From Firmicutes bacterium UBA6811 (GTDB lineage: Bacteria > Bacillota > SHA-98 > UBA4971): 64,000 nucleotides of DNA. The stretch covers positions 29-64,028 of the forward strand of contig DKEX01000001.1 in NCBI GenBank assembly GCA_002452295.1. Reading direction: 5' to 3'. The notes beneath the pieces were generated by a model that had not been told where the DNA came from, searched no databases, and worked only from the letters and a program-made list of their open reading frames with translations. Position numbers and translations under genes: made by a program. Below are positions 19,194 through 45,406 of the stretch, one piece after another (position 1 is the first letter of the stretch; every line of letters begins with the position of its first letter).

Positions 19194-21074
19194 ATGAGGA
19201 GATTCTGGAAGGGAATCCTTGCTGGGTTGCTTTTCGTGTTCCTTGTGGCAGGCGTTGCTTCGACCGGGTTTGCGGGCCAGGGAAAGCTATATGAGATGGC
19301 TATTTTCGCCGATCCCACCACCATAAACCTGTACTCGTCTCTAGGCCCGAGCGCGACGGTGTATAACTCGTTTGTCTCCAACAGCCAGTACTATACGTCC
19401 CTTTACGGGAACGCCCCTCCGACCTGGGCGTTCGTGCCGTCTGCAGCAGCCGATATGCCGAGCCCGCTGAAAGAGGAGAAGATCGGCGACAAGACCTACT
19501 GCACGTCCATCGTCAAGATGCGTAAAGACATCAAGTGGAGCGACAATACTCCGCTCACTGCCGATGACGTCGTGTTCAGCTACAACGCCGTTCTTGAGAT
19601 GGACCCCAACAAGCTCGGCGGGAACTGGCCCAGCATCGTGGATCCGACCGTTCTCGAGCGCGTGGAAAAAGTGGACGACTACACGGTGAAGTTCATTCTC
19701 AAGGAGATGCCCGGGCTCTCCCAGTGGCAGTATGGAGTGCTCCTGAACTATATCGTTAACAAGAAGTACTGGGAGCCCATCTTCGAGAACGCGAAGAAGG
19801 CCGCTGATCCCGTGAAGGAACTCTTCGCTCACGAGCCCGAGAAGCAGCCGACGGCCGGCCCGTGGAAGTTCGGGCACTGGGAGAAGGGCGCTTTCTGGCA
19901 GAATGTGCCTAACCCAGCGTATAGCGGCAAGGGCGAGGTTACCACGTTTTATGAGAACGGCGTCGTCACCATCGAGAACCCGAAGACCGGGTTTAAGTGG
20001 CAGAGCGGCAAGCCCGAAGGGAAGGTCCAGCTCAAGATCACCGATGGTCCGGACGCGACTGGCACGCTGTACCGAATATTCCAGAACCAGAGCGCGGCTG
20101 TGCTCTCTCTGACGGGCGGACAGGTTGACTTCGTGCTGAACTCCCTCGGCCTGCAGCGTGGGTTCCAGGAGCAGCTCAAGAAGGCACCCAATGTTGCGCT
20201 GATCGAGAACAGCGTCAACGGCTTCCGGTTCATGTCGTTCAACCTGAGGAAGTACCCCTTCAACATCAAGGAGTTCCGCCAGGCAGTGTCGGTCCTCATC
20301 GATCGCGAGTATATCTGCCAGAAGGTGCTTCAGGGCATCGCGTTCCCGCAGTACTCGGTTGTGCCGCCCGGAAATGCTTTCTGGTTCAACGAAAAGGTCC
20401 CGCAGTGGGGCAAGGGCCTCACCCGTTCCCAGAAGGTAGCCGAGGCGGTCAAGCTACTCAAGAAGGCCGGGTTCAAGTGGGAAGTGGAGCCCGAGGTAGA
20501 TCTCGAAAAGGACAAGGTTCTCAAGCGCGGCAAGGGGCTCATCATGCCGGACGGGAAGAAGATGCCCGAGTTCGAGTTCATGATCATGACGGCGGGCTAC
20601 GATCCTCTCCGGTACACGTTCGGCCTGAACATCGCCGCGTGGCTGAAGGAGGTCGGCATCCCGATTGAGGCCGTGCCCACCGAATTCAACGTCGTAAGCT
20701 CGAGGGTCTTCGATGAGCAGAACTTCGACGCGTTCATGATGGGCTGGAGCCTGAGCTTGTATCCGGACCACATGAAGTGGTTCTTCCACAGCGAGCAGGC
20801 TGAGCCCGGCGGCTTCAACCCCCAAGGCTACAACAACCCTGGGTTCGACAAGCTCGCGGACGACTTCGTCAAGGAGGCCGACTTGGAGAAGGCGCGCGAG
20901 AAGGCGTTCAAGTTGCAAGAGATCCTGGCAGACGAGCTGCCCTACATCGTGCTCTTTGACACCCCGCTCATCGAGGCTTACAAAACGGACCGCGTGCAAT
21001 ACCCGTACACGAAGGTCCTGAGCGGGCTGCAGTACGTCGGGGGACTCACGAGCACCGTCAAGATGCTCGACTGA
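19194..21074 (+). CDS. ABC transporter substrate-binding protein, family 5 (Opp/Dpp/Nik-type peptide/nickel binding).
   Basis: 626 aa with N-terminal signal/anchor LAGLLFVFLVAGVAS and a cluster D-E SBP_bac_5 architecture. Confidence 0.8.
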   Translation: MRRFWKGILAGLLFVFLVAGVASTGFAGQGKLYEMAIFADPTTINLYSSLGPSATVYNSFVSNSQYYTSLYGNAPPTWAFVPSAAADMPSPLKEEKIGDKTYCTSIVKMRKDIKWSDNTPLTADDVVFSYNAVLEMDPNKLGGNWPSIVDPTVLERVEKVDDYTVKFILKEMPGLSQWQYGVLLNYIVNKKYWEPIFENAKKAADPVKELFAHEPEKQPTAGPWKFGHWEKGAFWQNVPNPAYSGKGEVTTFYENGVVTIENPKTGFKWQSGKPEGKVQLKITDGPDATGTLYRIFQNQSAAVLSLTGGQVDFVLNSLGLQRGFQEQLKKAPNVALIENSVNGFRFMSFNLRKYPFNIKEFRQAVSVLIDREYICQKVLQGIAFPQYSVVPPGNAFWFNEKVPQWGKGLTRSQKVAEAVKLLKKAGFKWEVEPEVDLEKDKVLKRGKGLIMPDGKKMPEFEFMIMTAGYDPLRYTFGLNIAAWLKEVGIPIEAVPTEFNVVSSRVFDEQNFDAFMMGWSLSLYPDHMKWFFHSEQAEPGGFNPQGYNNPGFDKLADDFVKEADLEKAREKAFKLQEILADELPYIVLFDTPLIEAYKTDRVQYPYTKVLSGLQYVGGLTSTVKMLD

Positions 21075-21118
21075 GGAGAAGTCGCATTCTGGGCGCAAGT
21101 CGGTCTGAGACCTCTCAC

Positions 21119-21148
21119 GAGCGGGCCTGGGGTGCCCCAGGCCCGCTC
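21119..21148 (+). terminator. Perfect 14-15 bp GC hairpin between the substrate-binding-protein and permease genes (intra-operon attenuator).
   Basis: (C)GAGCGGGCCTGGGG-TG-CCCCAGGCCCGCTC(G), with no U-tract. Confidence 0.4.
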
Positions 21149-21209
21149 GAGTCTGCCAGGCCTTGGGCGCAGGGTGTGCGGGCAGGGCAAATCTGTCAGG
21201 GATTGAGGG

Positions 21210-22394
21210 ATGGAGATGCGCCGATACCTTTTGAACCGGCTAGGCCAGGTGGTCCTGACCCTCATCATATATATTACTCTGGTGTACTTCCTGCTTCAGG
21301 CCATGCCTGGCGACATCACACAGATGTACCTGGCGAATCCCAGGATCCCGCAGGCCGCCAGGGAAGAGCTTCAGAAACAGCTTGGCCTCGACCAGGGAGT
21401 CGTGATGCAGTACCTGAATTACCTCAAGAACTTCTTCAGCGGGGAACTCGGAGTGTCGTTCTCCCACTACCCTCGTCCGGTGTGGGACATCCTGATGGAA
21501 CGGCTGCCGAGAACCTTCGTGCTGTTCCTTACTGCGCATGTCCTTTCGTTCTACCTTGGGTACTTGTTGGGACGAATCATCGCGTGGCGCCGAGGTAAGG
21601 TGGTGGATTACGCCGCAACCGTCGTGGGCATAACGTTTTGGACCGCCTTCTACCCTCTTCTCTCACTTGTGCTGATCTGGGTCTTTGCTTATACCCTTAA
21701 GCTGCTTCCTCTCAACCAGTTCATAGAGCCGAGGCTGTGGCAGGGGGCACCTTTCCCGACCAACACCGTCTTCGGCTATATGGTATACGGAGGTGGCGCG
21801 GTTGCAGTAGGCCTGTTTCTCGTCTTCTATGCTTTCCTTCGTGGCCTGAAGCGTAGTCGTCGCAACACCGCTCGCGCGTGGCTCTCTGCCTTCGCGATCA
21901 TTGCAGTAGCCCTTGCAGTGGCGTGGCGCACAGGGTTGCTCGTCTACATCTGGGACATAGCGAGCCACATGATCCTTCCTGTGTGCACGCTTACGCTCAT
22001 CAGCTTCGCAGGCACGATGCTTCTCATGCGAGACTCCATGCTCGAGACCGTGCAGGAGGACTACGTGATGGCGGCTCGCGCGAAAGGTCTCCCCGACACG
22101 ATCGTAAGGGACAGATACGCTGCGCGCACTGCCATGCTGCCCACCGTTACTAGCCTGGTGCTGAGCCTGGCGAGCTCCATGAGCGGCGGCCTCGTCACCG
22201 AGACGATGTTTTCGTGGCCAGGCCTGGGCCAGATTCTCTTCCACTCGGCACTGGCCAACGACTATCCGCTCGCGACCGGAGCTCTCGCGTTCACAGGAGT
22301 GTTTCTCCTGATAGCGCACTTTGTTGCGGACATCCTCTACGCGGTGCTCGACCCCCGGATCACTTATGCAGGACAGCCTGCTGTCGAGGGTTAG
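21210..22394 (+). CDS. ABC transporter permease (OppB/DppB/NikB-like).
   Basis: BPD_transp_1 fold with multiple TM helices and the EAA-like motif region (AARAKGLPD). Confidence 0.8.
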   Translation: MEMRRYLLNRLGQVVLTLIIYITLVYFLLQAMPGDITQMYLANPRIPQAAREELQKQLGLDQGVVMQYLNYLKNFFSGELGVSFSHYPRPVWDILMERLPRTFVLFLTAHVLSFYLGYLLGRIIAWRRGKVVDYAATVVGITFWTAFYPLLSLVLIWVFAYTLKLLPLNQFIEPRLWQGAPFPTNTVFGYMVYGGGAVAVGLFLVFYAFLRGLKRSRRNTARAWLSAFAIIAVALAVAWRTGLLVYIWDIASHMILPVCTLTLISFAGTMLLMRDSMLETVQEDYVMAARAKGLPDTIVRDRYAARTAMLPTVTSLVLSLASSMSGGLVTETMFSWPGLGQILFHSALANDYPLATGALAFTGVFLLIAHFVADILYAVLDPRITYAGQPAVEG

Positions 22395-22426
22395 GTCAGC
22401 GTGTGGGGCAAGGCAGGTGAGAGAAT

Positions 22427-23389
22427 GTGAGACAACTGGCACCAAGCCCACAAGCAGAGGCTACTGTCCTCAGAGAGCCTTTGTGGAAGATCAGGTGGAA
22501 ACTCACTGTAAGAGGCCTTGCACAGAACTGGGCCGTCTTCAGAGAAAGTCGCGTGGGCATGCTCGGAGTTGTTATCATACTGCTTTTCGGCGTGTTCGGG
22601 GCGCTATGGCCCATCATGATAAACACAGTATGGGATCCTCTGGTGTACCACCCCGTGGTGGGGTTCGATCCCATGGTACTCCATCCCTCGCCGCCCACGA
22701 GAGCGCACCTTCTCGGCACTGATCCCATCGGCCGGGACATCCTGGCCCAACTCATGTTCAGCACGGGTCGGGAATTCCTGCTGGGGGTGCTTTCAGCACT
22801 CATCACTGTTGTGATCGGCACCGTCATCGGCACGGTGGCCGCCTACTACGGTGGGTTCACCGACACGTTTTTCATGCGCGTGGCCGACATCATGATGTTG
22901 TTCCCGTTCATTCCGCTTCTTGTCGTGGTCGGCTCTATGGTGCGGCTGACCTTCTTTCCCTTCGCGATGATACTGGGAGTGCTGGGAGGATTCGGAGGCA
23001 TAACGATCATTCTGAAAGCCCAGGCGCTCTCGGTCAAGGTCAGGCCGTACATCGACGCTGCGCGTGTGGCTGGAGGAAGCAGCTTCCACATAATCCGCGC
23101 ACACATCATCCCAAACGTGCTGCCGCTGTCGTTTCTATACATGATGTTCAATGTCACGTCAGCGATCCTGAGTGAGGCGACGCTGTCGTTCTTCGGCGTT
23201 CTGAACATCGATATGAGTTGGGGGATGATGATCCATACCGCCGACGTGGCAGGCTACCTCTTCGATTTCGGCAAGTACTGGTGGCTGTGGCTGCCGTCAG
23301 GAGTTGCAATCACGCTGTTCTGCGCCGCGTTCTACATGGTCGGCAGGGGACTCGACGAAGTTGTGAACCCGCGGCTGAGAAAGAGGTGA
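22427..23389 (+). CDS. ABC transporter permease (OppC/DppC/NikC-like).
   Basis: TM-rich with the conserved permease loop; follows the OppB-like gene. Confidence 0.8.
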   Translation: MRQLAPSPQAEATVLREPLWKIRWKLTVRGLAQNWAVFRESRVGMLGVVIILLFGVFGALWPIMINTVWDPLVYHPVVGFDPMVLHPSPPTRAHLLGTDPIGRDILAQLMFSTGREFLLGVLSALITVVIGTVIGTVAAYYGGFTDTFFMRVADIMMLFPFIPLLVVVGSMVRLTFFPFAMILGVLGGFGGITIILKAQALSVKVRPYIDAARVAGGSSFHIIRAHIIPNVLPLSFLYMMFNVTSAILSEATLSFFGVLNIDMSWGMMIHTADVAGYLFDFGKYWWLWLPSGVAITLFCAAFYMVGRGLDEVVNPRLRKR

Positions 23390-23393
23390 TAGA

Positions 23394-24428
23394 ATGGATA
23401 CCCTCCTGAAGCTGGATGATTTCACCATGCATTACCGCACAAAGGCCGGCTGGGTTCAGGCGGTTGACGGCGTGACGCTTTCCCTGGCACGAGGCCAGGC
23501 TCTCGGCCTGGTCGGAGAATCAGGGTGCGGAAAGACATCCGTTGCGATGTCCATAATGAAGCTGTTGCCCTATAACTCCAAAGTGGTCAGGGGCAGGATC
23601 CTGTTTGAGGACCGCGACATCTACTCGATGAGCGACGAAGAAGTCAGGAGGATGCGATGGAAAGGCATCGCCATGATATTCCAGGCAGCGATGAACTCGC
23701 TCAACCCCGTGTACCGCGTGGGCAACCAGATAGTCGAGGCCATAGTGACTCACGAGCCCGAGACGAGCGAACGGGAAGCCCGCGAAAGGGTTGCGTCCCT
23801 CTTCGAGCTAGTGGGGATCCCCAAGGAGCGCGTGGACCACTATCCTCATGAGTACAGCGGCGGGATGAAGCAGAGAGCTGTCATCGCGATGGCGCTTGCC
23901 TGCAACCCAAAGCTGGTCATCGCTGACGAACCCACCACGGCCCTCGACGTCATAGTACAGGACAAGATCCTCCGCGAGATAGATCAGATAAGGCGAAAGA
24001 TCAACATGAGCATGATTTACATCTCCCACGACGTTTCGGTCATCGCGGAGGTGAGCGACGTGGTGGCCGTGATGTACGCGGGTAAGCTGGTCGAAATGGG
24101 CCCGGCGGACAACGTGTTCAAGAAGCCTCGTCATCCGTACACTTGTGGTCTCATGATGGCCTATCCAAGCATCCTCGGGGACAAACACGAGCTTGCCACG
24201 ATTCCGGGCGAGCCGCCGAACCTGCTTGACCCGCCGGCGGGATGCCGTTTCCACCCGCGGTGCGACCGGGCAAGCGTGGAGTGCAGGGAAGCTGATCCTG
24301 TGTGGCGGGCAGTCGCCGAGGGTCACTACACCGCGTGTCACAACCCCGTCGAGATCACGGGTACCTGGTCGGAGGCCGTCAAAGCACTCAATGGGGGTGA
24401 GCGTCTTGGTGCTTCCAGCAACGCCTGA
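23394..24428 (+). CDS. ABC transporter ATP-binding protein (OppD/DppD/NikD-like).
   Basis: Walker A GESGCGKTS, signature YSGGMKQR, Walker B LVIADEPTTALD. Confidence 0.85.
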   Translation: MDTLLKLDDFTMHYRTKAGWVQAVDGVTLSLARGQALGLVGESGCGKTSVAMSIMKLLPYNSKVVRGRILFEDRDIYSMSDEEVRRMRWKGIAMIFQAAMNSLNPVYRVGNQIVEAIVTHEPETSEREARERVASLFELVGIPKERVDHYPHEYSGGMKQRAVIAMALACNPKLVIADEPTTALDVIVQDKILREIDQIRRKINMSMIYISHDVSVIAEVSDVVAVMYAGKLVEMGPADNVFKKPRHPYTCGLMMAYPSILGDKHELATIPGEPPNLLDPPAGCRFHPRCDRASVECREADPVWRAVAEGHYTACHNPVEITGTWSEAVKALNGGERLGASSNA

Positions 24429-24429
24429 T

Positions 24430-25413
24430 ATGCCCGATGCAGATGACGCAATCCTTCGCGTGGAGCGTCTCTCCAAGTACTACCCTGTATCTCGCGGGTT
24501 TTTCCAGCGCCGTCACTTGCTCCTACACGCGGTCGACGACGCAAGCTTCGAGGTCAGGCGGGGCGAGGTGTCGGGCCTTGTCGGGGAGTCGGGTTGCGGG
24601 AAAACGACCACAGGGCGGCTAATAGCCCGGCTTATCCTTCCCACGGCAGGCCGTATCTTCGTGGATAATGCTGATGTCTCGAAGATCCAGGGGTCTGACC
24701 TCGTGGAGTTCCGGCAGAAGGTCCAGATGATTTTCCAGGACCCGTACGAGTCGCTGGACCCCAGGATGACCATTTTCGATATAGTGACGGAGCCCCTGAA
24801 TGTGAACGGAATAGGCAACCTTGAGGAGCGGGAGGAGCGAGTGGCTGAGATGTTGAGCCTGGTCGGAATCACGCCGCCCTCTGCTTTCCTCTTCCGTTTC
24901 CCTCATGAGCTATCGGGAGGGCAAAGGCAGCGCGTGGCCATTGCCCGGGCACTCGTGGTGAACCCTACCTTTGTGGTGGCGGACGAGCCCACGTCAATGC
25001 TGGACGTCTCCATCCGCACAGGTGTGATGAAGCTGTTGGCCCAGCTCAGAGAGGATCTCGGGATCAGCTACCTGTACATCACCCACGATCTTGCGGTGGC
25101 GAGATACCTCTGCGACAGGATCGCAGTGATGTACCTGGGCAAAATCGTGGAGATGGGAACGGCTGAGGAGATCGTCAAGGAGCCGCTTCACCCGTATACC
25201 AGGGCTCTCATATCCGCTGTGCCGGTGCCTGACCCGGCGATAAGGCGTCCTGTCCCCAATATCAAGGGAGGTCTGAGCAAGCCGATAAACCCGCTGCCGA
25301 GATGCCGGTTTTACGAGCGGTGCCCGGACGCGAGAGGCGTGTGTGCCGACCAGAACCACCCGGAACTGAAAGAGGTATCAGGCGGCCGCTTTGTTGCGTG
25401 CCATGTGCTGTGA
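24430..25413 (+). CDS. ABC transporter ATP-binding protein (OppF/DppF/NikE-like). The start is ambiguous (24391 or 24430).
   Basis: Walker A GESGCGKTT, signature LSGGQRQR, Walker B FVVADEPTSMLD, and a C-terminal oligopeptide-type extension with Cys residues. Confidence 0.8.
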   Translation: MPDADDAILRVERLSKYYPVSRGFFQRRHLLLHAVDDASFEVRRGEVSGLVGESGCGKTTTGRLIARLILPTAGRIFVDNADVSKIQGSDLVEFRQKVQMIFQDPYESLDPRMTIFDIVTEPLNVNGIGNLEEREERVAEMLSLVGITPPSAFLFRFPHELSGGQRQRVAIARALVVNPTFVVADEPTSMLDVSIRTGVMKLLAQLREDLGISYLYITHDLAVARYLCDRIAVMYLGKIVEMGTAEEIVKEPLHPYTRALISAVPVPDPAIRRPVPNIKGGLSKPINPLPRCRFYERCPDARGVCADQNHPELKEVSGGRFVACHVL

Positions 25414-34408: not shown

Positions 34409-36709
34409 ATGTGGAGGCACGTGCGGAGAGGGGGAGACAACGTGGGAGAACCGGTGCGGCCGCAACAAGAAACCGGGTCGGGTGAGGAAAACGATGCAGC
34501 CACCGACGTGGCGGTGCTCGCGCTTTCGGGCATGACGTGCGCTTCATGCGTGGCCAGGGTGGAGCGGGCGCTCCGCCGCGCCCCGGGCGTGCTCGACGCC
34601 GCTGTGAACCTCGCGACCGAGAGGGCGACCGTCCGCTACAGCCCCGACGATACCTCCCCAGCCGACCTCGTGAGGGTGGTCCAGGACGCCGGTTACGATG
34701 CCCGCGAGGTCCGCGATGAAGACAGCGGCGCCGCAAGGGACAGGGAGCAGCGGCAGCGCGAGGCCGAGATAAGGCGCCAGAGGTCCCTCTTCGTTCTTGC
34801 GGCCGCTTTCTCGCTGCCGCTTCTGTCTCTTATGCTTTCGCATCTCTTCGGCGCGCACCTCCCGCCGCTCCTCGCAAACCCCCTGTTCCAGTTCGCCCTC
34901 GCCACCCCGGTGCAGTTCGTGGCCGGTTGGCAGTTCTACAGCGGGGCGTACGCCGCGCTTCGCGCGCGCTCCCCCAACATGGACGTGCTCGTCGCCCTCG
35001 GCACCACGGCCGCGTACGGCTTCAGCGTGTACCAGACGTTCGTCGGTCGCGGCCACGTCTACTACGAGTCCTCGGCGGTGGTCATCACCCTTGTGCTCCT
35101 CGGGCGGCTGCTTGAGGCCCGCGCGAAGGGAAGGACCTCCGAGGCAATGCGGAAGCTGATGGGGCTTGCGCCCCGCGCCGCGCACGTGGTGCGCGGCGGT
35201 CAGGAGGTGGACGTGCCCACGGAGGACGTGCGCGCAGGCGACATCGTGGTGGTGAGGCCTGGCGAGAAGATACCGGTGGACGGGGTGATCGCCGAGGGCA
35301 CGTCCGTGGTGGACGAATCCATGCTTACGGGCGAGAGCATCCCGGTGGAAAAGGGGCCCGGGGACGAGGTCACAGGGGCGACGGTGAACAGGCACGGCTC
35401 ATTCAAGTTCCGGGCGACCAGGGTCGGCAGGGACACGGTCCTCTCGCAGATCGTGCGGATGGTGGAGGAGGCCCAAGGGTCCAAGGCGCCCATCCAGCGG
35501 CTCGCCGACGTCGTCGCAGGATACTTCGTTCCGGCAGTGCTGGGGGTCGCCCTCGTTGCCCTGTTGAGCTGGCTCGTTGCTACGGGCGATCCGGGCCGCG
35601 CCTTCTTCGCCTTCACGGCGGTCCTCGTCATCGCGTGCCCGTGCGCCCTCGGCCTCGCCACGCCCACCGCCATCATGGTGGGGACGGGAAGGGGAGCTGA
35701 GGCGGGCATCCTCATCAGGGGGGCGGAGCACCTCGAGAGGGCGCACAGGATCGACACCGTGGTGTTCGACAAGACCGGGACCATCACGAAGGGCGAGCCG
35801 GAGGTGGTGGGCGAGGCCGTGGGTGCGGCCGCGCCGTCGCCGGGGGCCTACGTCGAAGAGATGCTGAGGCTCGCCGCGTCGGGCGAGATACGGTCGGAAC
35901 ACCCCCTCGGCGCCTCGATCGTGAGGCGCGCGCACGCTCTCGGGATCGCGCTTGGCGAGCCGTCGAGCTTCGAGGCGGTCCCGGGCAAGGGCATCCGCGC
36001 CCAGGTGGACGGGCGCACCGTGCTCGTGGGGACGCCGCGTTTCCTGGAGGAGGCTGGCGTGGACGTTCCCCAGGGGGTCGAGGAGGCGCGTCGCGACATG
36101 GAAAAGGAGGGCAAGACCGCGATGCTCGTGGCGGCGGACGGGCGGACGCTCGGCGTCATCGCAGTGGCCGACACCGTGAAGGAAACCTCGCGCGAGGCCA
36201 TCCGCGCCCTGCGGGGGCTTGGCGTGGAGGTGGTGATGATGACCGGGGACAACGAACGCACGGCGCAGGCCATCGCGCGACAGGTGAGCATCGAGAAGGT
36301 GCTCGCGGAGGTGCTCCCTGGCGACAAGGCCAGGGAGGTCCAGCGCCTTCGCCAGGAGGGCAGGGTCGTGGCGATGGTGGGGGACGGTATCAACGACGCG
36401 CCCGCGCTTGCCGCCGCAGACGTTGGTATCGCCATGGGCACGGGCACCGACATAGCCATGGAGGCCGCCGACATCACGCTCATCCGGGGCGACCTGCGGG
36501 CCGTTGCCGCGGCCATTCGCTTGAGCCGCCGCACCATGACGACCATCCGCCAGAACCTCTTCTGGGCCTTCATCTACAACATCATCGGCATACCGCTTGC
36601 GGCCCTCGGCCTTCTGTCGCCGGTGATCGCCGGCGCGGCCATGGCGTTCTCGTCGGTATCGGTCGTCACCAACTCCCTCAGGCTGCGCAGGTTCGACCCC
36701 TCGAGATGA
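34409..36709 (+). CDS. copA: Copper-translocating P1B-type ATPase.
   Basis: HMA domain [19 protein letters not shown] transmembrane metal site (IACPCALGL), DKTGTIT phosphorylation site, [10 protein letters not shown]. Confidence 0.85.
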
Positions 36710-36954
36710 TTACTGGGATAATTGCAGGAAGGAACGTCGCTCGCATACGACGAATATGCCTGGTGGCGATCCGAGGCTCGTCAGGCTCCGGCCGCGTTGT
36801 CGGCGTGGTCCTTACAGTGGACCTGGCCAAGCGAGACAGTGAGATCAAGATCCTTCTGGGATGCTCGGAGGAAGAGATCGCTGACATCATGAGTGTCCTG
36901 AGCTCCGGCCCCATGCGTGCCCCGCTGGTGCGGCGATTCGCGCCGGCAACATGA
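36706..36954 (+). CDS. Hypothetical small protein (82 aa) translationally coupled to copA and to the downstream TPR gene.
   Basis: ATGA overlap with the copA stop, and its own TGA overlaps the ATG of the TPR gene. No recognisable domain, and local GC is lower than the surroundings. Confidence 0.25.
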
Positions 36955-38003
36955 GCGTTTGCGAAATGCAAGGGGATGGTGATCCTGTGCTAAACTCAGA
37001 CGGGGCACGCACGAGGAAGCATTATCGCGATCTCGTCAACGAACGCAGGCGCGAGGGAAAGCTGCAGGAAGCCGAGTCCGTCGTGCGCGAGGCCATTTTA
37101 GCATACCCCGCGGACCTCTCCTTCCAGGCGGATCTTGCCGACATCATGTATCGGCGAGATCGCCTGGAGGAAGCCCAGGCCGTCGCCGACGAGGTGCTGA
37201 GGCTCGATCCCGCGCATTACCAGGCCCTTATGGTGGACGGCAACGTATACTTCAAGCGGCGCCAGTACGAGCGCGCACGGGAGTATTTCGTGGCGGCGGA
37301 CGCGATCTCCCACACGAGTTACTCCGCAGGGCGCCTCGCCGAGGCCGAGCTGCGGCTCGGCATGTATCGCGAGGCGATGGACCGCTCGCTCCAGGCCCTC
37401 GAACGGCACCCCAACGATGGCTGGCTGGTCTCCCTCGTGGCGCGCGCTTACGAGAAGCTGGGCGACGTGGATAAAGCTATCGAGTGGTACGAAAAGGCAA
37501 GGGAGCTTAATCCGAAGAACAGTTTCGTATATACACAGTACGTGAAGCTGAAAGGGCGGCGCAAGGAGCCTGCCACCTACGCTAAGGAACTCGACGGGAT
37601 AATGAAGGTCAGGGAGCGCGCGCATGATCCGAACCTCCTTGTCCTGAAGGGAGACGTGCTCCAGCGCGCGGGGGATCTCTCGGGCAGCATCGGGTGTTAC
37701 GAGGAGGCCGCGCGCCTTGCGCCGGAGGATGCTTTCGTCGTGTCGAAGCTGGGGTTCGCCTGTCACAGGGCCGGGGACGACGAGAAGGCGATTCCCCTTC
37801 TCGAAGAGGTGCTCTCCCGCGACCCCGGGAACATGCACGCGCGGTCCGCCCTTGCCGCAGCTTACCGCAAGCTGGGCAGGTATGCCCAGGGCGCCGGATT
37901 CTTCGAGAGGCTGGCGCAGGACCACCCTTCCATGAAGGCTTTCTGGGGAGAGGCGAGGAAGCTCCGGTCAAAGATGGTCCCGGCGGAGGAGGAAGAGAGT
38001 TAG
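36951..38003 (+). CDS. Tetratricopeptide-repeat (TPR) protein.
   Basis: Several 34-aa TPR-like units (W-LG-Y-A-F-A-P helix-turn-helix pattern, e.g. EAQAVADEVLRLDPAHYQALMVDGNVYFKRRQYERAREYF). Stop codon abuts the TTG start of the next gene. Confidence 0.65.
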   Translation: MSVCEMQGDGDPVLNSDGARTRKHYRDLVNERRREGKLQEAESVVREAILAYPADLSFQADLADIMYRRDRLEEAQAVADEVLRLDPAHYQALMVDGNVYFKRRQYERAREYFVAADAISHTSYSAGRLAEAELRLGMYREAMDRSLQALERHPNDGWLVSLVARAYEKLGDVDKAIEWYEKARELNPKNSFVYTQYVKLKGRRKEPATYAKELDGIMKVRERAHDPNLLVLKGDVLQRAGDLSGSIGCYEEAARLAPEDAFVVSKLGFACHRAGDDEKAIPLLEEVLSRDPGNMHARSALAAAYRKLGRYAQGAGFFERLAQDHPSMKAFWGEARKLRSKMVPAEEEES

Positions 38004-41000
38004 TTGGTTATCCGCGATCTCGTTGAAGTTCCATCGGTGCGCACCGTGGTGCGACTTGCCGACGTTCTCGACCCCGCGCTTCGCAAGGGGCTTGTGGAGA
38101 GTTTCGTCGTGACGGACGAGGTGGAGCATGCCCTGGGGACGGTGCTCGGAAGCCTTGCGTCCGGGGTGGGCAAGGGCTTCTTCGTGGAGGGCAACTTCGG
38201 GTCGGGGAAGTCTCATCTTCTTGCGATGCTGAGGATGCTCCTGGAGGACCCGGCCACGAGCGCCGGGTTCGCCTGCAACATAGGGGCGCTATCGGAGATA
38301 GCGTTCAGGCGGTACCTGGTGGTCAGCATCTCCCTCGTGGACCATGGCTCACGTGAGTACCTGGAGGACATCGTGATGGACGAGATCGAGCCGCTCCTCC
38401 GCGGAGGTCACGGCTCGGATGCGCTGGACGTGCGCGCCTCCGATGCGAAGGAGCTTGCCACGTTCCTTGCGGAGATCGGTGCCAGGCTGGAGGCACGTTA
38501 CCCTGTGGAACTTGCGGAGTTCGTCGCCGAGCGGGGCCTGGGTGCTTCCGACGAGCTCTTCAGGCCGGCGCGGGCCGCCGATGTAGAGGCCTTCTTGAGA
38601 CAGGTGGGCGCGCCCTACCGCCTGCGGGTGAGCCGAAGGGAAACGTTTGCCCGGCTGTCGTCGCGCCTCCGCGACCAGGGGCTTGACGGGATGGTCATCC
38701 TCATCGACGAGCTTTCCGAGTTCCTCAAGGTGAGGCCGGGCAGCAGGGCGTTCAACGAGGACATCAGGTTTCTGCAGTTCCTGGCGGAACGCGGGTCCGA
38801 AATCCCCTGCTGGGTGGTGGCGACCCTGCAGGAGAGGCTCGAGGCCACGGGCGACGTCCCGCCGGAGGCGTTCGGGAAAACCAAGGATCGGTACCCTGTC
38901 AGGCTACGTCTTACAGGTACCCACATCAAGGAGATCATCGAGAAGCGCCTGGTGAGAAAGAAAGAGGGCGCCGACTACCACATACGGCAGATCTACGCCG
39001 ATCTTCGCGAGGCGTTTGGCGACGTGGGCTTCGGCCCCGACGAGTTCGTCGGCATGTACCCGGTCCACCCGGCCGCGGTGAACCTCCTTGACGAACTCAA
39101 GCCGCTGTTCTCCCAGCACCGCGGGGTCATAGACTTCATCCACTCGCAGCTTGCAGGCGACCCGGACCGCAGGATACCGGGGATGATCGACATGCCCTCT
39201 GACACCCTCCTCGGAGCGGACCGGATATTCGATCACTTCCGGGACCGCATCAGGGAGGTGCCGGAGCTCTCCGGCTATAGTGAGAAAGTTTACAGATATT
39301 ATGAGGCCGAGCTTCCGTCCCTCGTTCCCGACAAGGGCGAGCGCAGGCTCGCCGAGAAGCTCGTCAAGATCTTGATCCTTCAGGCGATATCGCCGCTCAG
39401 CAGAAAGGTCACCGTGAGCGACCTTGCCAGGCTTGCTCTGGAGCGGGTCACGACCCTTGAATCCAGTGTGAACTACGGCCTTGTCGCCGATGTGCTTGCG
39501 CGCCTCCACAGGAGCGGGTCGTACATCGCCTGCGAAGCTGCGAAGGATCCCCTCGAGACGCGCTATTATGTGGACCTCGCGGCCGACGCCGGAGTTGAGG
39601 TGCAGAGAAAGGCGGCATATATCAAGTCGGGGCTCTTTCCCGGCGACTCGCGTCTTCTTACGATGCTCGCGCCTGACGTGGACCCCGCACACCTCCCGCT
39701 CGAGACTCTCATCGCCGGGCCAAAGTGCGAGTCCACGCGCCACGTCGCGTGGCAGAGAACGAGCCGGGAGGCCCTCGTGGCGGTCCTGCGGTTCGACGAG
39801 ATCTCGCCTGACAGGCTCGCCGGGTGGGCGGACAGGCTTCTCACCGCCGAAACCGACTTCGTGCTCGTGATCGGGTGGCCACAGGAGACCTCCGAGCAGA
39901 TCCGGCACCTCGAGAGCGTGATTGTCCCCGAGCTTGCCAGGCTCGGCGTTGCGGATGCATTCGTCTTCTGGGCCCCGGAGGGGCTCGACGCGCCCGGACG
40001 CGAGCGCGACCTGGACGCGCTCCTCGAGGTCCTGGCGAGGCGTCTGCTGTGTGAGGAGATCTCACGGGAAGGCACGTCCTCGGCAGCGGCCGTGAGAAGC
40101 TATCTCGAGGCCCTGTTGGAGCAGGACAGGCTTCGGGTGCGAGAGCTGTACCGCGAGCTGTACAGCCGTGGCTCACTCATCAGCGGGCGCGGCGACACGG
40201 TGCTTGATCTCAGCGAGGGTGGTGCAGGGAGCTTCGAGCAGGCCCTCGACAGGGCGGGCGCTGCTGCGCTGACGCGGAGGTTTCCGGCACACATGGAGGT
40301 GGCTCCACGATCGGAGGCGCTGACTCCCGGCGTCCTTCAGCGGTGCATAACGGACTTCCTCGGCCCGGGCGCCGGCATCGAACCTGTGAAGATAGCTGAC
40401 CATGCCGTTGCCTCAGCCGTGGAGGGGTTCTTCTGCCCGATGGGCCTGGCGAGGAGGACGGCACGGGGGTATTCCGTCACCGTCGACGCCGGCTCGAACC
40501 CTCTCGTGGCGGCCGCGCTCGCCAGCGTCAGGGAGGAGAAGGCTTCGTTCCGTGACGTGTACCTCGGCTTGCGTAAGGGCCCTTACGGCCTTGCCCGCGA
40601 CTCCTTCCAGGTGCTCCTGACGACCCTCGTGTGCACCGGGCTCGTCTCGGCATACATGGGTGGCAGAAAGATGGCCCCAGGCGCGCTGAAATCGTTCAAC
40701 TTCTGGAAGGTTGACGCCTTCGGGAGGGGCGAAGCGCTCGCCCCGGAGCTTCAGGACGCCGTGTCCGAGGTGGGGATGATACCCTCGCGGCTGCGAAAGG
40801 GGTCGGCCACCATAGCCCGCCAGCAGGAGATATGGGACTTTCTCGGCCAGTGGAAGAGGGAGGCGGAGGCCCTTGCGACCACGACGAAGTCGCGCCTCGC
40901 TGAGCTTCGGGACTATCAGGCCCTCGGGTTCCTCGACTTCGACGGCGCGCTCCGCGAGGCAGACGAGGTTGCGCGCGTTGCGGCCGAGGTAAAGACGTCG

Positions 41001-42062
41001 TACTCTTCGCAGGAAGGGATCGAGCGTTTCCTCCACGCTTACAGGACTTCCCCCTATTTCGAGAGGTACTACGGGCGTGTCGTGAGACTCGGGCAGTTCC
41101 TCGGCGCTGATCTCGACAGGTTCCTGGCCATTTTCGGGTACCTGACGTCGAGCCACCTCGTGATCCCACGTGACATGCGCTTCTCCGAACTCGAGCAGCG
41201 ACGCCGGGAGCTCATCTCGCTTGCGTCTGACGAGGAGTGCATATTCGACGCTGGGCGCTGGCAGCGTCTCGTGGACGGGTTCGAGGAGTTCCAGGAGAAC
41301 TACATCCGTGTGTACCTCGAGGAACACTCGAGGATGCTGGGGCAGGCCAGGTTCGCCGGGTACGACCGGCTGGAGAGCTCGAGGGCCTTCGGCCTCCTGC
41401 GGCAGCTTTCGAAGGTCCAGTTCATCGCGGTGAAGGACGACATGGTGAGGGTCGAGCGCGCACTCGCCGCCGTGAGGGCCAGGCGGTGCGATGGGCCTGC
41501 CGAGAGGATGCTGAAGGTGAGCCCCGTATGCGGGTGCGGTTTCCACCTGGGCGACGAGGTTTCTCTTACCCCGGTTGACAGGATCGCGGAGATGGTCGAG
41601 TCGGGCGTGAGGGAGTATCTTGCAGGCCTGCGTTCGGCGGAACACATGGAGAAAATCAGGGGGCACGTTGCCGGCCTGGAGGCAGTAGGAAAGCGGCATA
41701 TCGCCGAGCCGGTAAGATGCCTGCTTGCCATGGATCCCGCGGCGCCTGGGCTTGTGGAGGAGATGGCCGACATCGTGACCCCCTCGGCGATGGAGGCGGT
41801 TTCGCAGGCCCTTTCCGGCCGGGTACTCATGGTGGACCGCGATGTCGACGAGCTGTACGAGCGCATCGTAGGCCGCACTTTCCCGCTGGAGAAGGTCATG
41901 GAGGTCTTTCGCGAGTGGCTGGAGGGCCCGAGCGAGGTGGCTCCGGGGACCTACGTCAGGATCACCGAAGGGCGGCGGCTTCCCGCCTGCGACGGATTTT
42001 CCGAAGGGGCTGGCAACGCATCTTCCGAAGGTGGTGATGCTCCCGTTACGGGAGCGGGGTAG
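38004..42062 (+). CDS. Large BrxC/PglY-like P-loop NTPase (1352 aa).
   Basis: N-terminus resembles the BrxC N-terminus. Walker A GNFGSGKSHLLAMLRMLLED (compare BrxC GFFGSGKSHFLKxLSYLLEN), preceded by FVVTDEVEHAL. Walker B MVILIDELSEF. A long alpha-helical C-terminal region follows. TTG start at 38004 follows GGAGGAGG. Confidence 0.55.
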   Translation: MVIRDLVEVPSVRTVVRLADVLDPALRKGLVESFVVTDEVEHALGTVLGSLASGVGKGFFVEGNFGSGKSHLLAMLRMLLEDPATSAGFACNIGALSEIAFRRYLVVSISLVDHGSREYLEDIVMDEIEPLLRGGHGSDALDVRASDAKELATFLAEIGARLEARYPVELAEFVAERGLGASDELFRPARAADVEAFLRQVGAPYRLRVSRRETFARLSSRLRDQGLDGMVILIDELSEFLKVRPGSRAFNEDIRFLQFLAERGSEIPCWVVATLQERLEATGDVPPEAFGKTKDRYPVRLRLTGTHIKEIIEKRLVRKKEGADYHIRQIYADLREAFGDVGFGPDEFVGMYPVHPAAVNLLDELKPLFSQHRGVIDFIHSQLAGDPDRRIPGMIDMPSDTLLGADRIFDHFRDRIREVPELSGYSEKVYRYYEAELPSLVPDKGERRLAEKLVKILILQAISPLSRKVTVSDLARLALERVTTLESSVNYGLVADVLARLHRSGSYIACEAAKDPLETRYYVDLAADAGVEVQRKAAYIKSGLFPGDSRLLTMLAPDVDPAHLPLETLIAGPKCESTRHVAWQRTSREALVAVLRFDEISPDRLAGWADRLLTAETDFVLVIGWPQETSEQIRHLESVIVPELARLGVADAFVFWAPEGLDAPGRERDLDALLEVLARRLLCEEISREGTSSAAAVRSYLEALLEQDRLRVRELYRELYSRGSLISGRGDTVLDLSEGGAGSFEQALDRAGAAALTRRFPAHMEVAPRSEALTPGVLQRCITDFLGPGAGIEPVKIADHAVASAVEGFFCPMGLARRTARGYSVTVDAGSNPLVAAALASVREEKASFRDVYLGLRKGPYGLARDSFQVLLTTLVCTGLVSAYMGGRKMAPGALKSFNFWKVDAFGRGEALAPELQDAVSEVGMIPSRLRKGSATIARQQEIWDFLGQWKREAEALATTTKSRLAELRDYQALGFLDFDGALREADEVARVAAEVKTSYSSQEGIERFLHAYRTSPYFERYYGRVVRLGQFLGADLDRFLAIFGYLTSSHLVIPRDMRFSELEQRRRELISLASDEECIFDAGRWQRLVDGFEEFQENYIRVYLEEHSRMLGQARFAGYDRLESSRAFGLLRQLSKVQFIAVKDDMVRVERALAAVRARRCDGPAERMLKVSPVCGCGFHLGDEVSLTPVDRIAEMVESGVREYLAGLRSAEHMEKIRGHVAGLEAVGKRHIAEPVRCLLAMDPAAPGLVEEMADIVTPSAMEAVSQALSGRVLMVDRDVDELYERIVGRTFPLEKVMEVFREWLEGPSEVAPGTYVRITEGRRLPACDGFSEGAGNASSEGGDAPVTGAG

Positions 42063-42112
42063 GGGAGGCGAATCGTCCCTTCCTCCCGGAGCAGACTTCC
42101 TCGGGTGAGGCG

Positions 42113-43522
42113 GTGGACGGAGGGCCTACGGCACGGGAACATCGGCCGGGAGGCCCGCAGGAAACCCCGGTCCCGTCGGGCGATGCCCCGGCGCACGACG
42201 GCGGCGGATGGCGCAGGCTCATCATGCCCGGGGGCTCAGAAGACGATCTCTTGGGGGCAACAAAGGCGTTTTTCGCCCACCTGGACTCCGGCCAGGCCGA
42301 GGCCGGCGGGCTCGACGACGCCGCCCGCGAGCTCGGCCTGGCGTATGCCCATCGCACAGGTCACAGCCCCGCGGACGCCAGCGTTCAGCTGATCCGGCCG
42401 GAGGCGGGAACCTGCGACGCCCGGGAGGGCCTGAGAACCTCCTGCATGGCGGCGTGTCTTGTCGCGGCGCGGCTGGCCTCGACCACGGGCGTGCTCCGGG
42501 GCCGCGTGGCCCGGGCGGCGGGGTGGCGTAACTTCGAGGAGCTGTACGTCGGCATGGTGGCCGGCGCGCGGGCCGATGCCGGGGCGCTGTGGAGCATGGC
42601 GTCACAGCTCGGTCTCGCGGCGTTTGTGCCGAAGCACCTGAGGCCGGCGCAGTTGGACTTTGCGCTCTCTGAGGCGGACAGTGCGTTTGGCCGGTTCTAC
42701 ACGCAGCTTTACACCGGCGAGATCGGCGAAAGGGCGCCTGCGCGCGGTTCGGCGGGGATCTCCGGGCTTGACCGTGACCGTGACGGTGACCGTGACCGGG
42801 AGGGGGACGTGCCGGCGAACCTTGCGTCCGTGCTCGCAGGGTTCACACGCGGAGCGACTCGGTCGCTTCCGATCCGGCCCGAACACCTTTACTTCGTGCT
42901 CATGGACGGCATGCGCCTCGACGCGTGGTGGCGCGTGCAGGAAGAGGTGCTCTCTGCGTGCGATCGGGAGATCGCGGAGATCGCGGGCGGCATGACGTGG
43001 GCCGAACCGCCGACCGTGACGGACCCACAGGTACAGGCGCTGCGACAGGCTGGGTTTGCAGGTCCCATCATCGACCTCGACGATCCGGAGGGTTTTTTCG
43101 AGGGCGGCGCGACCACGTGCGACTGCGACAACATGGGGCGCGCCCGCGCATACTGCCGATTCGTCCGGTTCGGGTTCATCGACAGGAAGATCCACGCGAC
43201 GAGCGACCCTCACCATGTGGTCCTCGACGAGGTGGCGCTTGGGGTGCAAAGGTGGCTCATTCCCTGGCTTGCGGCCATGCCTGCCCGGAGCCTCGTGGTG
43301 ATCGTCTCTGACCACGGCTACCGCGAGAACTCGAGCCCTGCCCGGGACAACGGCGCTCAGGTCGAGCACAGGCTCGCTGGCGGCCTCGGTGGCCCCTCGA
43401 GACCCCGGTACGCTCACGGAGGGAACTCCATGGCGGAGGTCATCGTCCCCTGGTCGGCGCTGCTGTTCCGGGACGCCCCCCGGGCCTGGCTTCGAGGTTC
43501 TCCTCAACTGCCGCCACGATAG
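42113..43522 (+). CDS. PglZ-domain protein (alkaline-phosphatase superfamily), short form (469 aa).
   Basis: [14 protein letters not shown] and [11 protein letters not shown]...[14 protein letters not shown] match PglZ core motifs (metal-binding D and H). N-terminal start is uncertain. The C-terminal approx. 25 aa run antisense into the leuB remnant and are probably not native. Confidence 0.6.
42770..42799 (+). repeat. Tandem hexanucleotide repeat (GACCGT)x5, imperfect. Encodes [10 protein letters not shown] inside the PglZ-domain gene.
   Basis: gaccgtgaccgtgacggtgaccgtgaccgg read directly from the sequence. Confidence 0.7.
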
Positions 43523-43900
43523 CATCGGCCAGCTCGCGCGTGGTCGCGCTTCCGCCAAGGTCGGGGGTCAGCGCGCGGCCTTCGCGCAGGACCTTCGTGA
43601 CCGCGTTCTCGACGGCTGCGGCGCGCCGGGCCTCCCCGAGGTGCCTCATCAGCATCATGGCGGCAGACAGGATGGCGGCGGCGGGGTTTGCGACTCCCTG
43701 GCCGGCGATCTCCGGTGCGCTGCCGTGCACCGGCTCGAAGACCGCGGCCTCGTCTCCGATGTTAGCCCCGGGCGCAAGGCCGAGGCCGCCCACGAGGCCT
43801 GATGCGAGGTCTGATATGATGTCCCCATACAGACTTCGCTGCGAGGATCACCTCCGGACCGATGCCATCCCCGCGAATCAGCGTTACCCTGTGCGACATG
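43440..43900 (-). pseudogene. leuB: 3-isopropylmalate/isocitrate dehydrogenase remnant. The N-terminal approx. 24 aa are joined out of frame to the C-terminal approx. 120 aa.
   Basis: Minus-strand ATG at 43900 with RBS GGAGGTGAAAACC gives [18 protein letters not shown]. After about 24 codons the homology continues in another frame as [24 protein letters not shown]...[19 protein letters not shown]. About 200 internal codons are missing. Confidence 0.6.
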
Positions 43901-43908
43901 GCCGGTTT

Positions 43909-44230
43909 TCACCTCCGCATCATGGAGACTGTCGATGGTGAAGGGCACTGCCAGCCGGGAGCAGCGCGACCGTAGCGGAGCGAGGCGTGTATCGCGGGAA
44001 CTGCAACCGCTGGACGGATGGCCACGCGCAGAGGACCGGGCTCGATGATCCCTGCCTTGGCGCCCATCTCCACCGCCATGTTGCACAGGGTGAACCTGGC
44101 GTCAACTCCAAGGTGCTCCACGGCCTCGCCGCAGAACTCGCACGACACAGACGATGCCCCCGGCGCGGGCGCCGGTGCCCGAGTGGCTTGACAGGATCTT
44201 CTCGGCGATGGTCCTTCCCAAGGCGACTAT
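43909..44230 (-). pseudogene. leuC: 3-isopropylmalate dehydratase large-subunit remnant (fragments only).
   Basis: [14 protein letters not shown] (LeuC N-terminus) and, frameshifted, [23 protein letters not shown] (mid-LeuC aconitase motif). Residues about 35-200 and the C-terminal half are absent, and there is no leuD. Confidence 0.5.
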
Positions 44231-44257
44231 GCTTCCCGGATGGTCTGGCCGCTCGCG

Positions 44258-45406
44258 CTACTTGTGGGCGGCCCCGTCCCGCATGGCGTCCTCGTATATG
44301 TATACAAGCTCCTTGTCAAAGAGGGGGCGCTTGAGGTTCACCGCTATGGCTCGCACCGCGGGCAGCATGGCCGCAGCTTCCTGGTCAGTGAGGTTGATGC
44401 CGTACTCCAGGAACTTCGACTTCAGGGAATGCTTGCCGGAGTGCTTCCCGACGACTATCTGCCTCTGGAGCCCGACCTCCTCCGGCGGGAAGACCTCGTA
44501 GGTTCTGGGGTTCTTGAGGACCCCGTCTGCGTGGATGCCCGACTCGTGGGCGAACGTGTTGGCGCCGACTATGGGCTTTGAGAGCGGGATCTCCCTGCCG
44601 GAGGCCCTCGCCACATACTCGGACAGCTCACGGAACCTCGTCGTCTTGATCCCGAGGTCGATGCCGTAGATGTGCTTGAGGGCCATCACGACCTCCTCCA
44701 GGGCGGCGTTGCCTGCGCGCTCGCCAAGGCCGTTCACCGTGACTCCGACGTACCTGGCGCCGGCCTGCACGCCCGCCAGGGCGTTGGCGGTTGCCATTCC
44801 AAAGTCGTTGTGAGTGTGGGTCTCGATGTCGAGCCCGGTCTCCTCGTGGAGGGCCTTGACGCGGTCGTGCGTGGTGAGGGGGTCGAGCAGGCCCACGGTG
44901 TCACAGTAGCGCAGCCTGCACGCGCCCGCGCCCTTCGCGGCCATGGCAAACTCCAGGAGGAAGGCGGGGTCGGCGCGGGTCGCGTCCTCAGCGTTGACTG
45001 ATATGTACAGCCCGTGCTGTGCTGCGTGGACCACCGCCTGTGTCATGGCCTCGAGGACCTGCTGCCGTGTCATCTGGAGTTTGTGGAAAATGTGTATGTC
45101 GGATACCGAGATCGATATGGCGACGGCGTCAACTCCGCACTCGATGGAGGCGTCTATGTCGGAAAGAACAGCCCTGTTCCACGCCATTACGCTCGCCTTC
45201 AGGCCCGCCTGCGCTATGGCCTTCACCGCCTCCTGCTCGTCTCCGCCCATGGCGGGGATCCCGGCCTCGATCTGGTCCACGCCGATTTCGTCCAGCATCC
45301 TCGCAATCCGCAGCTTCTCCGTGCGAGCAAACACGACGCCTGCTGTTTGCTCTCCATCCCGCAACGTGGTGTCGACGATGAGTACCTTCCTGTCTCTGTC
45401 GTTCAT
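44258..45406 (-). CDS. 2-isopropylmalate synthase/homocitrate synthase family protein, short form (LeuA/NifV/CimA-like), apparently intact.
   Basis: HMGL-like TIM barrel [12 protein letters not shown] and [12 protein letters not shown]. 382 aa from MNDRDRKV. Confidence 0.75.

Follow-up and report, generated by a model that had tools for sequence, protein, structure and literature searches.

A split TPR and BrxC–PglZ locus in Firmicutes bacterium UBA6811, candidate member of a BREX-related family without a methyltransferase

In a stretch of 64,000 nucleotides (nt) from Firmicutes bacterium UBA6811 (contig DKEX01000001.1; the whole stretch is called the window below), we found three consecutive genes on the + strand that code for a tetratricopeptide repeat (TPR) protein, a BrxC-like ATPase, and a minimal PglZ protein. 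The last two correspond to the core enzymes of bacteriophage exclusion (BREX) systems, but no methyltransferase or other BREX component was found with them in the window. In most of the relatives recovered from other genomes, ATPase and PglZ are fused into a single protein encoded downstream of a TPR gene. In our judgment, the chances are about even that a conserved TPR plus BrxC–PglZ cassette, not described until now and with a role against mobile DNA, is present here in split form.

An earlier note on this DNA, drawn from its letters without database searches, had proposed a module of these three genes, and the open reading frames (ORFs) were recovered at the same coordinates, with matches in Pfam, PADLOC, and NCBIfam. 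The TPR gene (36951..38003, +) codes for 350 amino acids (aa) with TPR repeats; it matches many TPR families of Pfam (TPR_2, TPR_14, TPR_19, and others; best E=1.5e-31) as well as the TPR-S model (32.5 bits, cutoff 27.6). The product of the ATPase gene (38004..42062, +, TTG start, 1352 aa) is equivalent to the first three quarters, from the N-terminus, of the fused protein of the family. The third gene (ORF3, 42113-43522, +) codes for 469 aa from a GTG at 42113 or for 432 aa from an ATG at 42224 (42224..43522), the start used in two of three public gene calls (432-434 aa), and comprises a helical linker domain and an alkaline-phosphatase-type core. The genes had been described as chained by overlapping or abutting codons, which is true of the TPR and ATPase genes (stop at 38003, TTG at 38004), but the ATPase stop is separated from the start of ORF3 by 50 nt (GTG) or 161 nt (ATG), and the frames differ.

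The BrxC–PglZ family and its TPR and RecQ partners

We scanned one genome per species (185,579 species) and found relatives of the ATPase at 317 loci, i.e., in approximately 0.17% of the species genomes, distributed over many phyla. The best 80 loci were fetched with 10 kb on either side, and their ORFs were called and clustered within this analysis. Carriers include Halanaerobiales, Syntrophomonadaceae, Moorellales, Peptococcaceae, Thermodesulfobacteriota and other "delta" lineages, Nitrospinae, Nitrospira, Vulcanimicrobiota, Spirochaetia, Cloacimonadota, Acidobacteriota, and Bacteroidota. The closest relatives of the ATPase share 35-42% identity with it and are 1,700-1,880 aa long. A single BrxC–PglZ ORF of at least 1,600 aa (median, 1,774 aa) is present in 64 of the 80 loci; elsewhere, the big gene is interrupted by a contig end (11 loci), carries a frameshift in or near the PglZ part (L060, and L036 near the C-terminus), or codes for the ATPase only (4 loci). 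Public records name the fused proteins "DUF6079 family protein" or "hypothetical." Since 64 of the 80 relatives are fused and the window has two ORFs in different frames, we consider the window locus a split derivative. This was the main point overlooked by the earlier note: judged from sequence comparison, nearly all relatives fuse the ATPase and PglZ, and the window holds the rare split form.

The TPR gene is the other constant element. In 59 of the 80 loci (55 of the 69 in which the upstream sequence suffices), the ATPase gene is preceded on its own strand by the gene of an orthologue of approximately 335 aa, and the window conforms to this arrangement, with its TPR gene directly upstream of the ATPase gene. 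The orthologues are full-length, with 25-36% identity and E-values from 1e-21 to 1e-61, and their genes are mostly adjacent to the ATPase gene, with a stop-to-start spacing typically between -38 and +60 nt and overlapping or abutting codons. In addition, 15 of the 80 loci, all of them Thermodesulfobacteriota or "delta," have a RecQ helicase gene directly upstream of the ATPase gene, and in the 12 of these with a TPR gene, RecQ sits between the TPR and ATPase genes. These helicases are complete (DEAD, Helicase_C, RecQ_Zn_bind, RQC, and HRDC domains). Besides TPR and RecQ, no conserved neighbor was detected in the 80 loci.

Two further candidates for core components were discarded. Proteins with a SEC-C motif are restricted to a small subclade of Halanaerobiales, where one or two proteins of approximately 630 aa with an N-terminal SEC-C zinc motif are encoded directly upstream of the TPR gene (L005:5054-8864, L004:7060-8862, L057:158-3975); they could be a clade-specific accessory or reflect mere synteny. 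A 670-aa TPR/periplasmic-binding protein upstream of the TPR gene was found in three loci only. As for the ATPase-only relatives (L018, L051, L053, and L076; 1,265-1,405 aa), the "TY[IV]R[IV]" boundary of the window ATPase is also where the proteins of L018, L051, and L076 stop, and no PglZ domain was detected downstream within the fetched sequence, which in L053 extends over only about 0.2 kb. L018 and L053 have no TPR gene, L051 has TPR and RecQ genes upstream, and the upstream sequence of L076 is too short to tell.

The two enzymes and the gene split

The ATPase matches the Pfam family DUF6079 (now named BrxC-PglY_N) with E=2.2e-39 and the PADLOC BrxC models with up to E=1e-27, in agreement with the BrxC-like assignment of the earlier note. 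The match to NCBIfam BREX_BrxC (E=1.7e-25, 89.5 bits) is far under the cutoff of 400, and that to PglY reaches 25.5 for a cutoff of 1700. Both nucleotide-binding motifs can be read directly: Walker A, GNFGSGKSH (38190..38216, +), with family-invariant G63, G66, G68, K69, S70, and H71, and Walker B, VILIDELSEF (38694..38723, +), with family-invariant D235, E236, L237, S238, E239, and F240. In the C-terminal region, a cysteine cluster C-x13-C-x-C-G-F (residues 1162-1180; 41487..41543, +), whose C1162, C1176, C1178, and G1179 did not vary among the 23 and the 31 family members compared, is possibly a metal-binding element. The family profile detects the Acinetobacter BrxC chains (7e-12 to 2e-14), and the C-terminal part of the same profile detects PorX (4.7e-6). 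Because only the N-terminal ~550 residues are resolved in the Acinetobacter BrxC structures, the structural comparison reaches that far and the remainder of the assignment is based on collinearity with Pfam, the relative P0019 covering positions 153-1223 of the 1238 of the DUF6079 model. On these grounds, the window protein can be classified as a full-length BrxC-type ORC/Cdc6 AAA+ ATPase, within the BrxC/PglY-type P-loop ATPases.

The short PglZ protein of the earlier note proved to be correctly named, although the profile proposed as a check, PF08665, does not recognize it. ORF3 alone has no match in Pfam, even at E<=10, nor in PADLOC; its match to NCBIfam BREX_PglZ_3 is marginal (E=0.003, 15.9 versus a cutoff of 250), and a search by word index for homologues retrieved only ORF3 itself. 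The fused relatives have faint precomputed PF08665 matches, none of them at E<=0.001 on rescan. The assignment comes instead from those relatives: residues ~110-450 of ORF3 are collinear with residues ~1,520-1,810 of the closest relatives of the ATPase (E=2e-25, 1e-27, and 2e-24). A profile built from ORF3 and 19 C-termini of fused relatives (A3) matched PorX (1e-9) and the Acinetobacter BREX PglZ (0.004) in the PDB and, among 1.84 billion representative proteins, 843 clusters at E<=1e-3, some of whose proteins score above the Pfam threshold for PglZ. One of these is a PglZ of 953 aa (E=8.8e-34) with BrxL directly after it. The AlphaFold2 model of ORF3 (pLDDT 77.8, pTM 0.80) comprises a bundle of helices and an alpha/beta core, along with a disordered loop rich in Asp and Arg; in a Foldseek search with it, PorX ranked first (2.9e-9), and the remaining folds of the alkaline phosphatase superfamily had scores of at most 11.5 over ~165 residues.

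All the invariant or near-invariant residues of the family are retained in ORF3 (D265, G266, R268, D270, P300, T303, D357, H361, D400, H401, G402, Y433, H435, and G436). They fall into five motifs: the region of the metal-binding Asp (42899..42928, +; D265, R268, and D270 invariant or nearly so); PPTVTDPQ (43007..43030, +), with the invariant P300 and T303 (nucleophile/metal), which aligns with LPTATQ of PorX in the T272 region (T538 in the PglZ of E. fergusonii); IDRKIH (43178..43195, +), with D357 and H361 invariant or nearly so; SDHGY (43307..43321, +), whose D400, H401, and G402 occur in 97-100% of the family; and the motif with HGG (43409..43453, +; Y433, H435, G436, E442, and P446 conserved), which aligns with FQHGGISLEEMLVP of PorX in the H500 region (H741 in E. 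fergusonii PglZ). T538 and H741 of the E. fergusonii protein are required for metal binding and nuclease activity. Profile homology, the common fold, and the kept metal-binding and nucleophile residues therefore identify ORF3 as a genuine but minimal PglZ, made up, according to sequence and model, of linker helices and a core with an intact predicted metal site.

Two observations on PglZ proteins can be added. The Asp/Arg dipeptide-repeat loop of ORF3 (42770-42808; residues 220-232) is predicted to be disordered, varies in length among strains (two more residues in the JGI contig L001), and is not present in fused relatives. The A3 profile also matches (1e-32 to 1e-44) a distinct class of PglZ-domain proteins of ~720-830 aa (L082 and L084-L086), found in non-BREX contexts beside genes for a GFO_IDH_MocA oxidoreductase, a DegT aminotransferase, and B12-binding proteins.

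A clean split between ATPase and PglZ was seen in this species only, among 82 loci. At least four assemblies share this split (the window, L001, L087, and L088, NCBI and Logan assemblies among them), of which L001 can be considered an independent assembly because of its 2-aa Asp-Arg repeat indel relative to the window, and all six members of the 90%-identity cluster of the ATPase are unfused (1,338-1,352 aa). The break falls in the interdomain linker. The ATPase ends just past the conserved "TY[IV]R[IV]" boundary (41949-41972), and the spacer at the fission point (42063..42223, +) matches the place of the helical linker of the fused relatives. This helix, of ~60-100 aa in those proteins, was not recognizable at the junction in any frame, and no frameshifted remnant was found there; both new termini are of low complexity. 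On the other hand, the ATPase keeps 90 of the 90 family-invariant positions, ORF3 keeps all its catalytic and structural invariants, and the ORFs are uninterrupted in every assembly examined. Intact domains beside a linker that has diverged beyond recognition imply selection after the split, and we read it from these sequences as a fixed gene fission that would have left two working subunits, rather than as decay. Between the window and L087/L088 there are about 8 substitutions in the 2,134 codons of the module and none in 1,137 flanking codons (Cu-ATPase and HMGL genes), a marginal excess that could reflect relaxed or diversifying selection.

Comparison with BREX and related systems

The absence of other BREX components from the 64 kb, as had been claimed, was borne out: PADLOC found no PglX, BrxA, BrxB, BrxL, BrxH, BrxD, PglW, or BrxP among the other 45 ORFs of the window, and Pfam assigned housekeeping functions to the ~30 of them searched (dnaG, rpoD, dinB, dnaE, the opp transporter, a PPDK-like protein, SpoIID, and Cu-ATPase among them). 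No methyltransferase or BrxP was detected among the 45 ORFs (PADLOC, Pfam on ~30, and a motif scan), and none is conserved in the 80 loci, where, of 742 flanking ORFs, 4 at scattered places had motif pairs resembling those of methyltransferases. We also surveyed 147 flanking proteins from 65 loci with Pfam and PADLOC. The commonest Pfam families were GAF (6), PIN (5), SEC-C (5), and histidine kinase domains (4), with no recurring methyltransferase family or BREX accessory, and PADLOC gave few matches, namely two SNF2 helicases and some PDC and mad models. BrxA and BrxB had no PADLOC match in the window and were not among the 25 commonest PADLOC families of the neighbors, a search that covers recognizable genes and does not reach highly divergent domains embedded in the big protein. 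Neither BrxL nor a BrxH-type helicase was found in the window. The earlier note had suggested looking for conservation of the architecture in defense islands: conserved it is, across the 80 loci and without methyltransferase or accessories, but the flanks are mostly housekeeping genes and not defense islands.

The most comprehensive survey of BREX (PMC12839542) distinguishes the BREX types, three BR types centered on DUF499, and a seven-gene HerA/FtsK system with DUF6079 and a reduced PglZ. BREX types 1-6 consist of a BrxC/PglY ATPase, PglZ, the N6-adenine methyltransferase PglX/BrxX (in type 4, the PAPS reductase BrxP), and BrxA, BrxB, BrxL, or helicases. Like them, the window has both universal hallmarks, a BrxC-type ATPase and a PglZ-clade enzyme of the alkaline phosphatase family with an intact metal site, and in a subset of relatives a helicase (RecQ) joins the pair. 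Unlike BREX, the family has no methyltransferase, PAPS reductase, BrxA, BrxB, or BrxL, has a dedicated TPR partner instead, and fuses BrxC to PglZ. The same survey reports as universal in BREX a BrxA-like DNA binder and a BrxB-like inactive STAND, and describes in BREX PglZ N-terminal inactive Swi2/Snf2 and helix-turn-helix modules and a C-terminal beta-sandwich, which ORF3 does not have. Thus, although the two core enzymes are shared, membership in BREX fails on the missing methyltransferase, BrxA/B, and BrxL/H.

Other known systems are partially similar. BR-3 likewise employs an ORC/Cdc6-type ATPase and, as its putative effector, a PglZ that stands alone and is minimal yet active; however, its ATPase is of the DUF499 type and is accompanied by an N6-methyltransferase, by a helicase, and by a homologue of iSTAND/BrxB (PMC12839542), whereas our family combines a DUF6079/BrxC-type ATPase with a TPR partner and a mostly fused PglZ, with neither methyltransferase nor iSTAND. 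The BREX-related capture system built around HerA/FtsK (45 taxa) resembles the family in its DUF6079-type ATPase, its reduced PglZ, and the absence of PglX, but it has seven components (a STAND NTPase, DUF4007, HerA/FtsK, GNAT, TGT, and others) and a PglZ that still has the inactive helicase at its N-terminus (PMC12839542); its genes are not conserved at the family loci, and the family was detected in more species (317 loci in the scan of species genomes). PorX, a response regulator of the type IX secretion system (PDB 7PV7 and 8TFM), also carries a PglZ/alkaline-phosphatase-superfamily domain, but attached to a CheY receiver domain in two-component signaling, while in the family this domain is joined to a BrxC ATPase or encoded next to one, with a TPR protein as partner. 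MANTIS, which is BR type 2, is unrelated to this architecture. The text of the survey makes no mention of TPR or RecQ, and the passages on fusions consulted in it describe none between BrxC and PglZ. In the literature searched we found no description of a TPR plus BrxC–PglZ architecture, in line with the suggestion of the earlier note that the compact BrxC and PglZ module was previously uncharacterized.

Possible roles and genomic setting

In BREX, the ATPase BrxC belongs to the ORC/Cdc6 clade; it binds DNA, and its binding to PglZ goes through BrxB, an adaptor of the inactive AAA+ type (PMC13326643). By analogy, the BrxC part of the cassette, an ORC/Cdc6-like ATPase with DNA-binding modules, would bind DNA and use ATP to drive complex assembly or switching, and the PglZ part, with every metal-binding and nucleophile residue kept, would be the effector that nicks or cuts DNA or cleaves oligonucleotides. 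The covalent fusion may stand in for BrxB, an adaptor that would be unnecessary because BrxC and PglZ form one chain in the family; in the window, the two subunits presumably associate in a non-covalent complex. Without a methyltransferase, self and non-self cannot be distinguished through methylation, and the TPR partner would most likely provide the control: it could sense a protein derived from the invader or keep the enzyme inactive. RecQ, present in about a fifth of the relatives, may be an optional motor with a role like that of the BrxL/BrxH helicases in BREX. The whole would be a system derived from BREX and independent of methylation, in which a DNA-binding scaffold switched by ATP positions or licenses the PglZ nuclease and the TPR protein controls or targets it. 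As for its substrate, we consider invading DNA about as probable as all other targets together, and the restriction of phages or other mobile DNA seems to be the most likely role. A narrower proposal, held somewhat less firmly, is that the cassette, with or without RecQ, works as a self-sufficient, methylation-independent immune system, a minimal functional BREX core in which the PglZ nuclease is licensed directly by the BrxC ATPase and the sensing of invaders by the TPR protein replaces epigenetic self-marking.

The signs of accessory-gene behavior are the scattered rarity of the family, the likeness of its members across phyla, and an apparent insertion in Moorella glycerini, where the cassette is inside the conserved spoVT...mfd-pth-L25-prs-glmU block. 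Identities across phyla are 53-89% overall, and 62-89% over ~1,750 aa between L033 and L058, among L079, L078, L062, and L069, and between L052 and L016/L017/L027. A Spirochaetia/Bacillota pair is 75% identical, a Bacillota/Vulcanimicrobiota pair 62%, and the Bacteroidota (Marinifilum) and Nitrospira copies are each 81-89% identical to the same copies from unclassified metagenome-assembled genomes (MAGs; L062 and L069). Such similarity indicates either recent horizontal transfer or mis-binning of MAGs.

Several results weigh against a defense role for this split cassette. The sensor role of the TPR protein is proposed by analogy only, and the PglZ part is structurally closer to PorX, a signaling protein, than to BREX PglZ. 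The flanks are mostly housekeeping, with only a handful of PADLOC matches among the 147 neighbors plus the five PIN-domain matches of Pfam, and no recurring integrases or transposases among them. Searches of plasmid, phage, and IMG/VR collections yielded only distant canonical BrxC and no member of the family. The sequences of Halanaerobiales, Syntrophomonadaceae, and Thermodesulfobacteriota largely track taxonomy, which is compatible with vertical descent. Finally, the strains with the split are >99.8% identical, so that dN/dS on the split genes is uninformative. With neighbors of this kind and few matches to defense models, a defense role remains our inference.

Many of these results would fit a cellular, non-defense function, such as surveillance of replication or repair by the ATPase, the nuclease, and an optional RecQ, or the turnover of oligonucleotide signals, linear or cyclic, as by the PglZ domain of PorX, with the TPR protein as adaptor to partners in the cell; we give it perhaps one chance in four. 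This function would agree with the core-chromosome setting in the window (dnaG, rpoD, dnaE, SpoIID, and Cu-ATPase) and in Moorella, with the mostly metabolic or regulatory neighbors in the 65 loci (GAF, histidine kinases, and transporters), the few matches to defense models, and the clustering of sequences by taxonomy within clades; the PglZ part finds its best match, by structure and by profile, in PorX, and RecQ is a helicase of genome maintenance. However, a cellular function fits less well with a family found at only 317 loci dispersed across many phyla, with near-identical copies in different phyla, with a neighborhood that is not conserved beyond the cassette, and with a cassette that looks inserted in an otherwise conserved Firmicute gene block, and both catalytic modules are the two universal hallmarks of BREX (PMC12839542).

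It is also unlikely, and considerably more so than a cellular role, that the locus is a decaying remnant, in which the split inactivated the fused gene and left two pseudogene halves not yet degraded. The split is confined to this species, ~60-100 aa of linker helix have been lost between low-complexity termini, some relatives have frameshifts (L036 and L060) or only the ATPase, the adjoining leu genes are visibly decayed, and the substitutions between strains fall in the module. Nevertheless, the cut lies at a domain boundary, ORF3 has its own start codon and a confidently predicted fold, both ORFs are open in all the assemblies examined, and the conserved positions described above are intact next to a diverged linker, a contrast that implies selection after the split. 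Least probable of all, and only a slight chance in our opinion, is that the genes belong to a canonical BREX or BREX-related system with its methyltransferase and accessories elsewhere in the genome. BREX components are occasionally dispersed, and our view spans 64 kb of this genome and 10 kb on either side in the relatives, but PglX, BrxA, BrxB, and BrxL are near none of the 80 loci, nor in the window, and the parts of PMC12839542 cited here describe no BREX or BR type with a PglZ fusion and TPR pairing. Moreover, the scores are far under the curated cutoffs for BrxC, PglY, and PglZ_3, and mark a separate clade.

The roles of BrxC and PglZ in BREX are hard to disentangle from the methylation machinery, and this family, which holds only both modules and the TPR protein, offers a stripped-down system for asking how the two act jointly, whether the pair is capable of restriction without methylation, and how it is controlled. 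If the cassette is defensive, it adds a type widespread in anaerobic Bacillota and Thermodesulfobacteriota that PADLOC v2.0.0 sees as a lone BrxC match; if it is not, the BREX core would have been recruited for a cellular function. If it is an immune system, the fact that BrxC and PglZ occur in nature both fused and, as here, split would show that they work as a single machine.

Regarding the surroundings of the module, its GC content equals that of the flanks, and no bracketing direct or inverted repeats or terminators were found above chance around it. A decayed leu-type operon follows on the opposite strand (43440-45406, -), with an HMGL-like (LeuA/CimA-like) gene at 44258-45406, an N-terminal fragment of LeuC (aconitase; 79 aa, ~43909-44148, -), and a C-terminal fragment of LeuB (isopropylmalate dehydrogenase, Iso_dh; 117 aa, 43440-43793, -) that covers only Pfam positions 254-348. 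The 3' end of ORF3 overlaps that of the leuB remnant by 83 nt. The earlier note had taken this disrupted operon as a sign of insertion of the module; the remnants are real, but they do not mark an insertion because the intact 3' end of leuB is the one facing the module. The sequence is that of an internal leuC-leuD-leuB deletion with its break away from the module boundary, and the leu disruption was rejected as an insertion site.

Upstream, an ORF of 82 aa (36706-36954, +) lies between the Cu-ATPase and TPR genes, with an ATGA overlap at each end and no Pfam match. It was considered as a fourth component and rejected, having no homologue in the 80 loci, and is probably not a module gene. The single promoter-like site near the module, a weak one, is at 36693-36722. 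Farther away, positions 18000-25000 of the window have a lower GC content (0.58 versus ~0.65); an operon for an oligopeptide ABC transporter (SBP_bac_5, two permeases, and an ATPase) occupies the same stretch.

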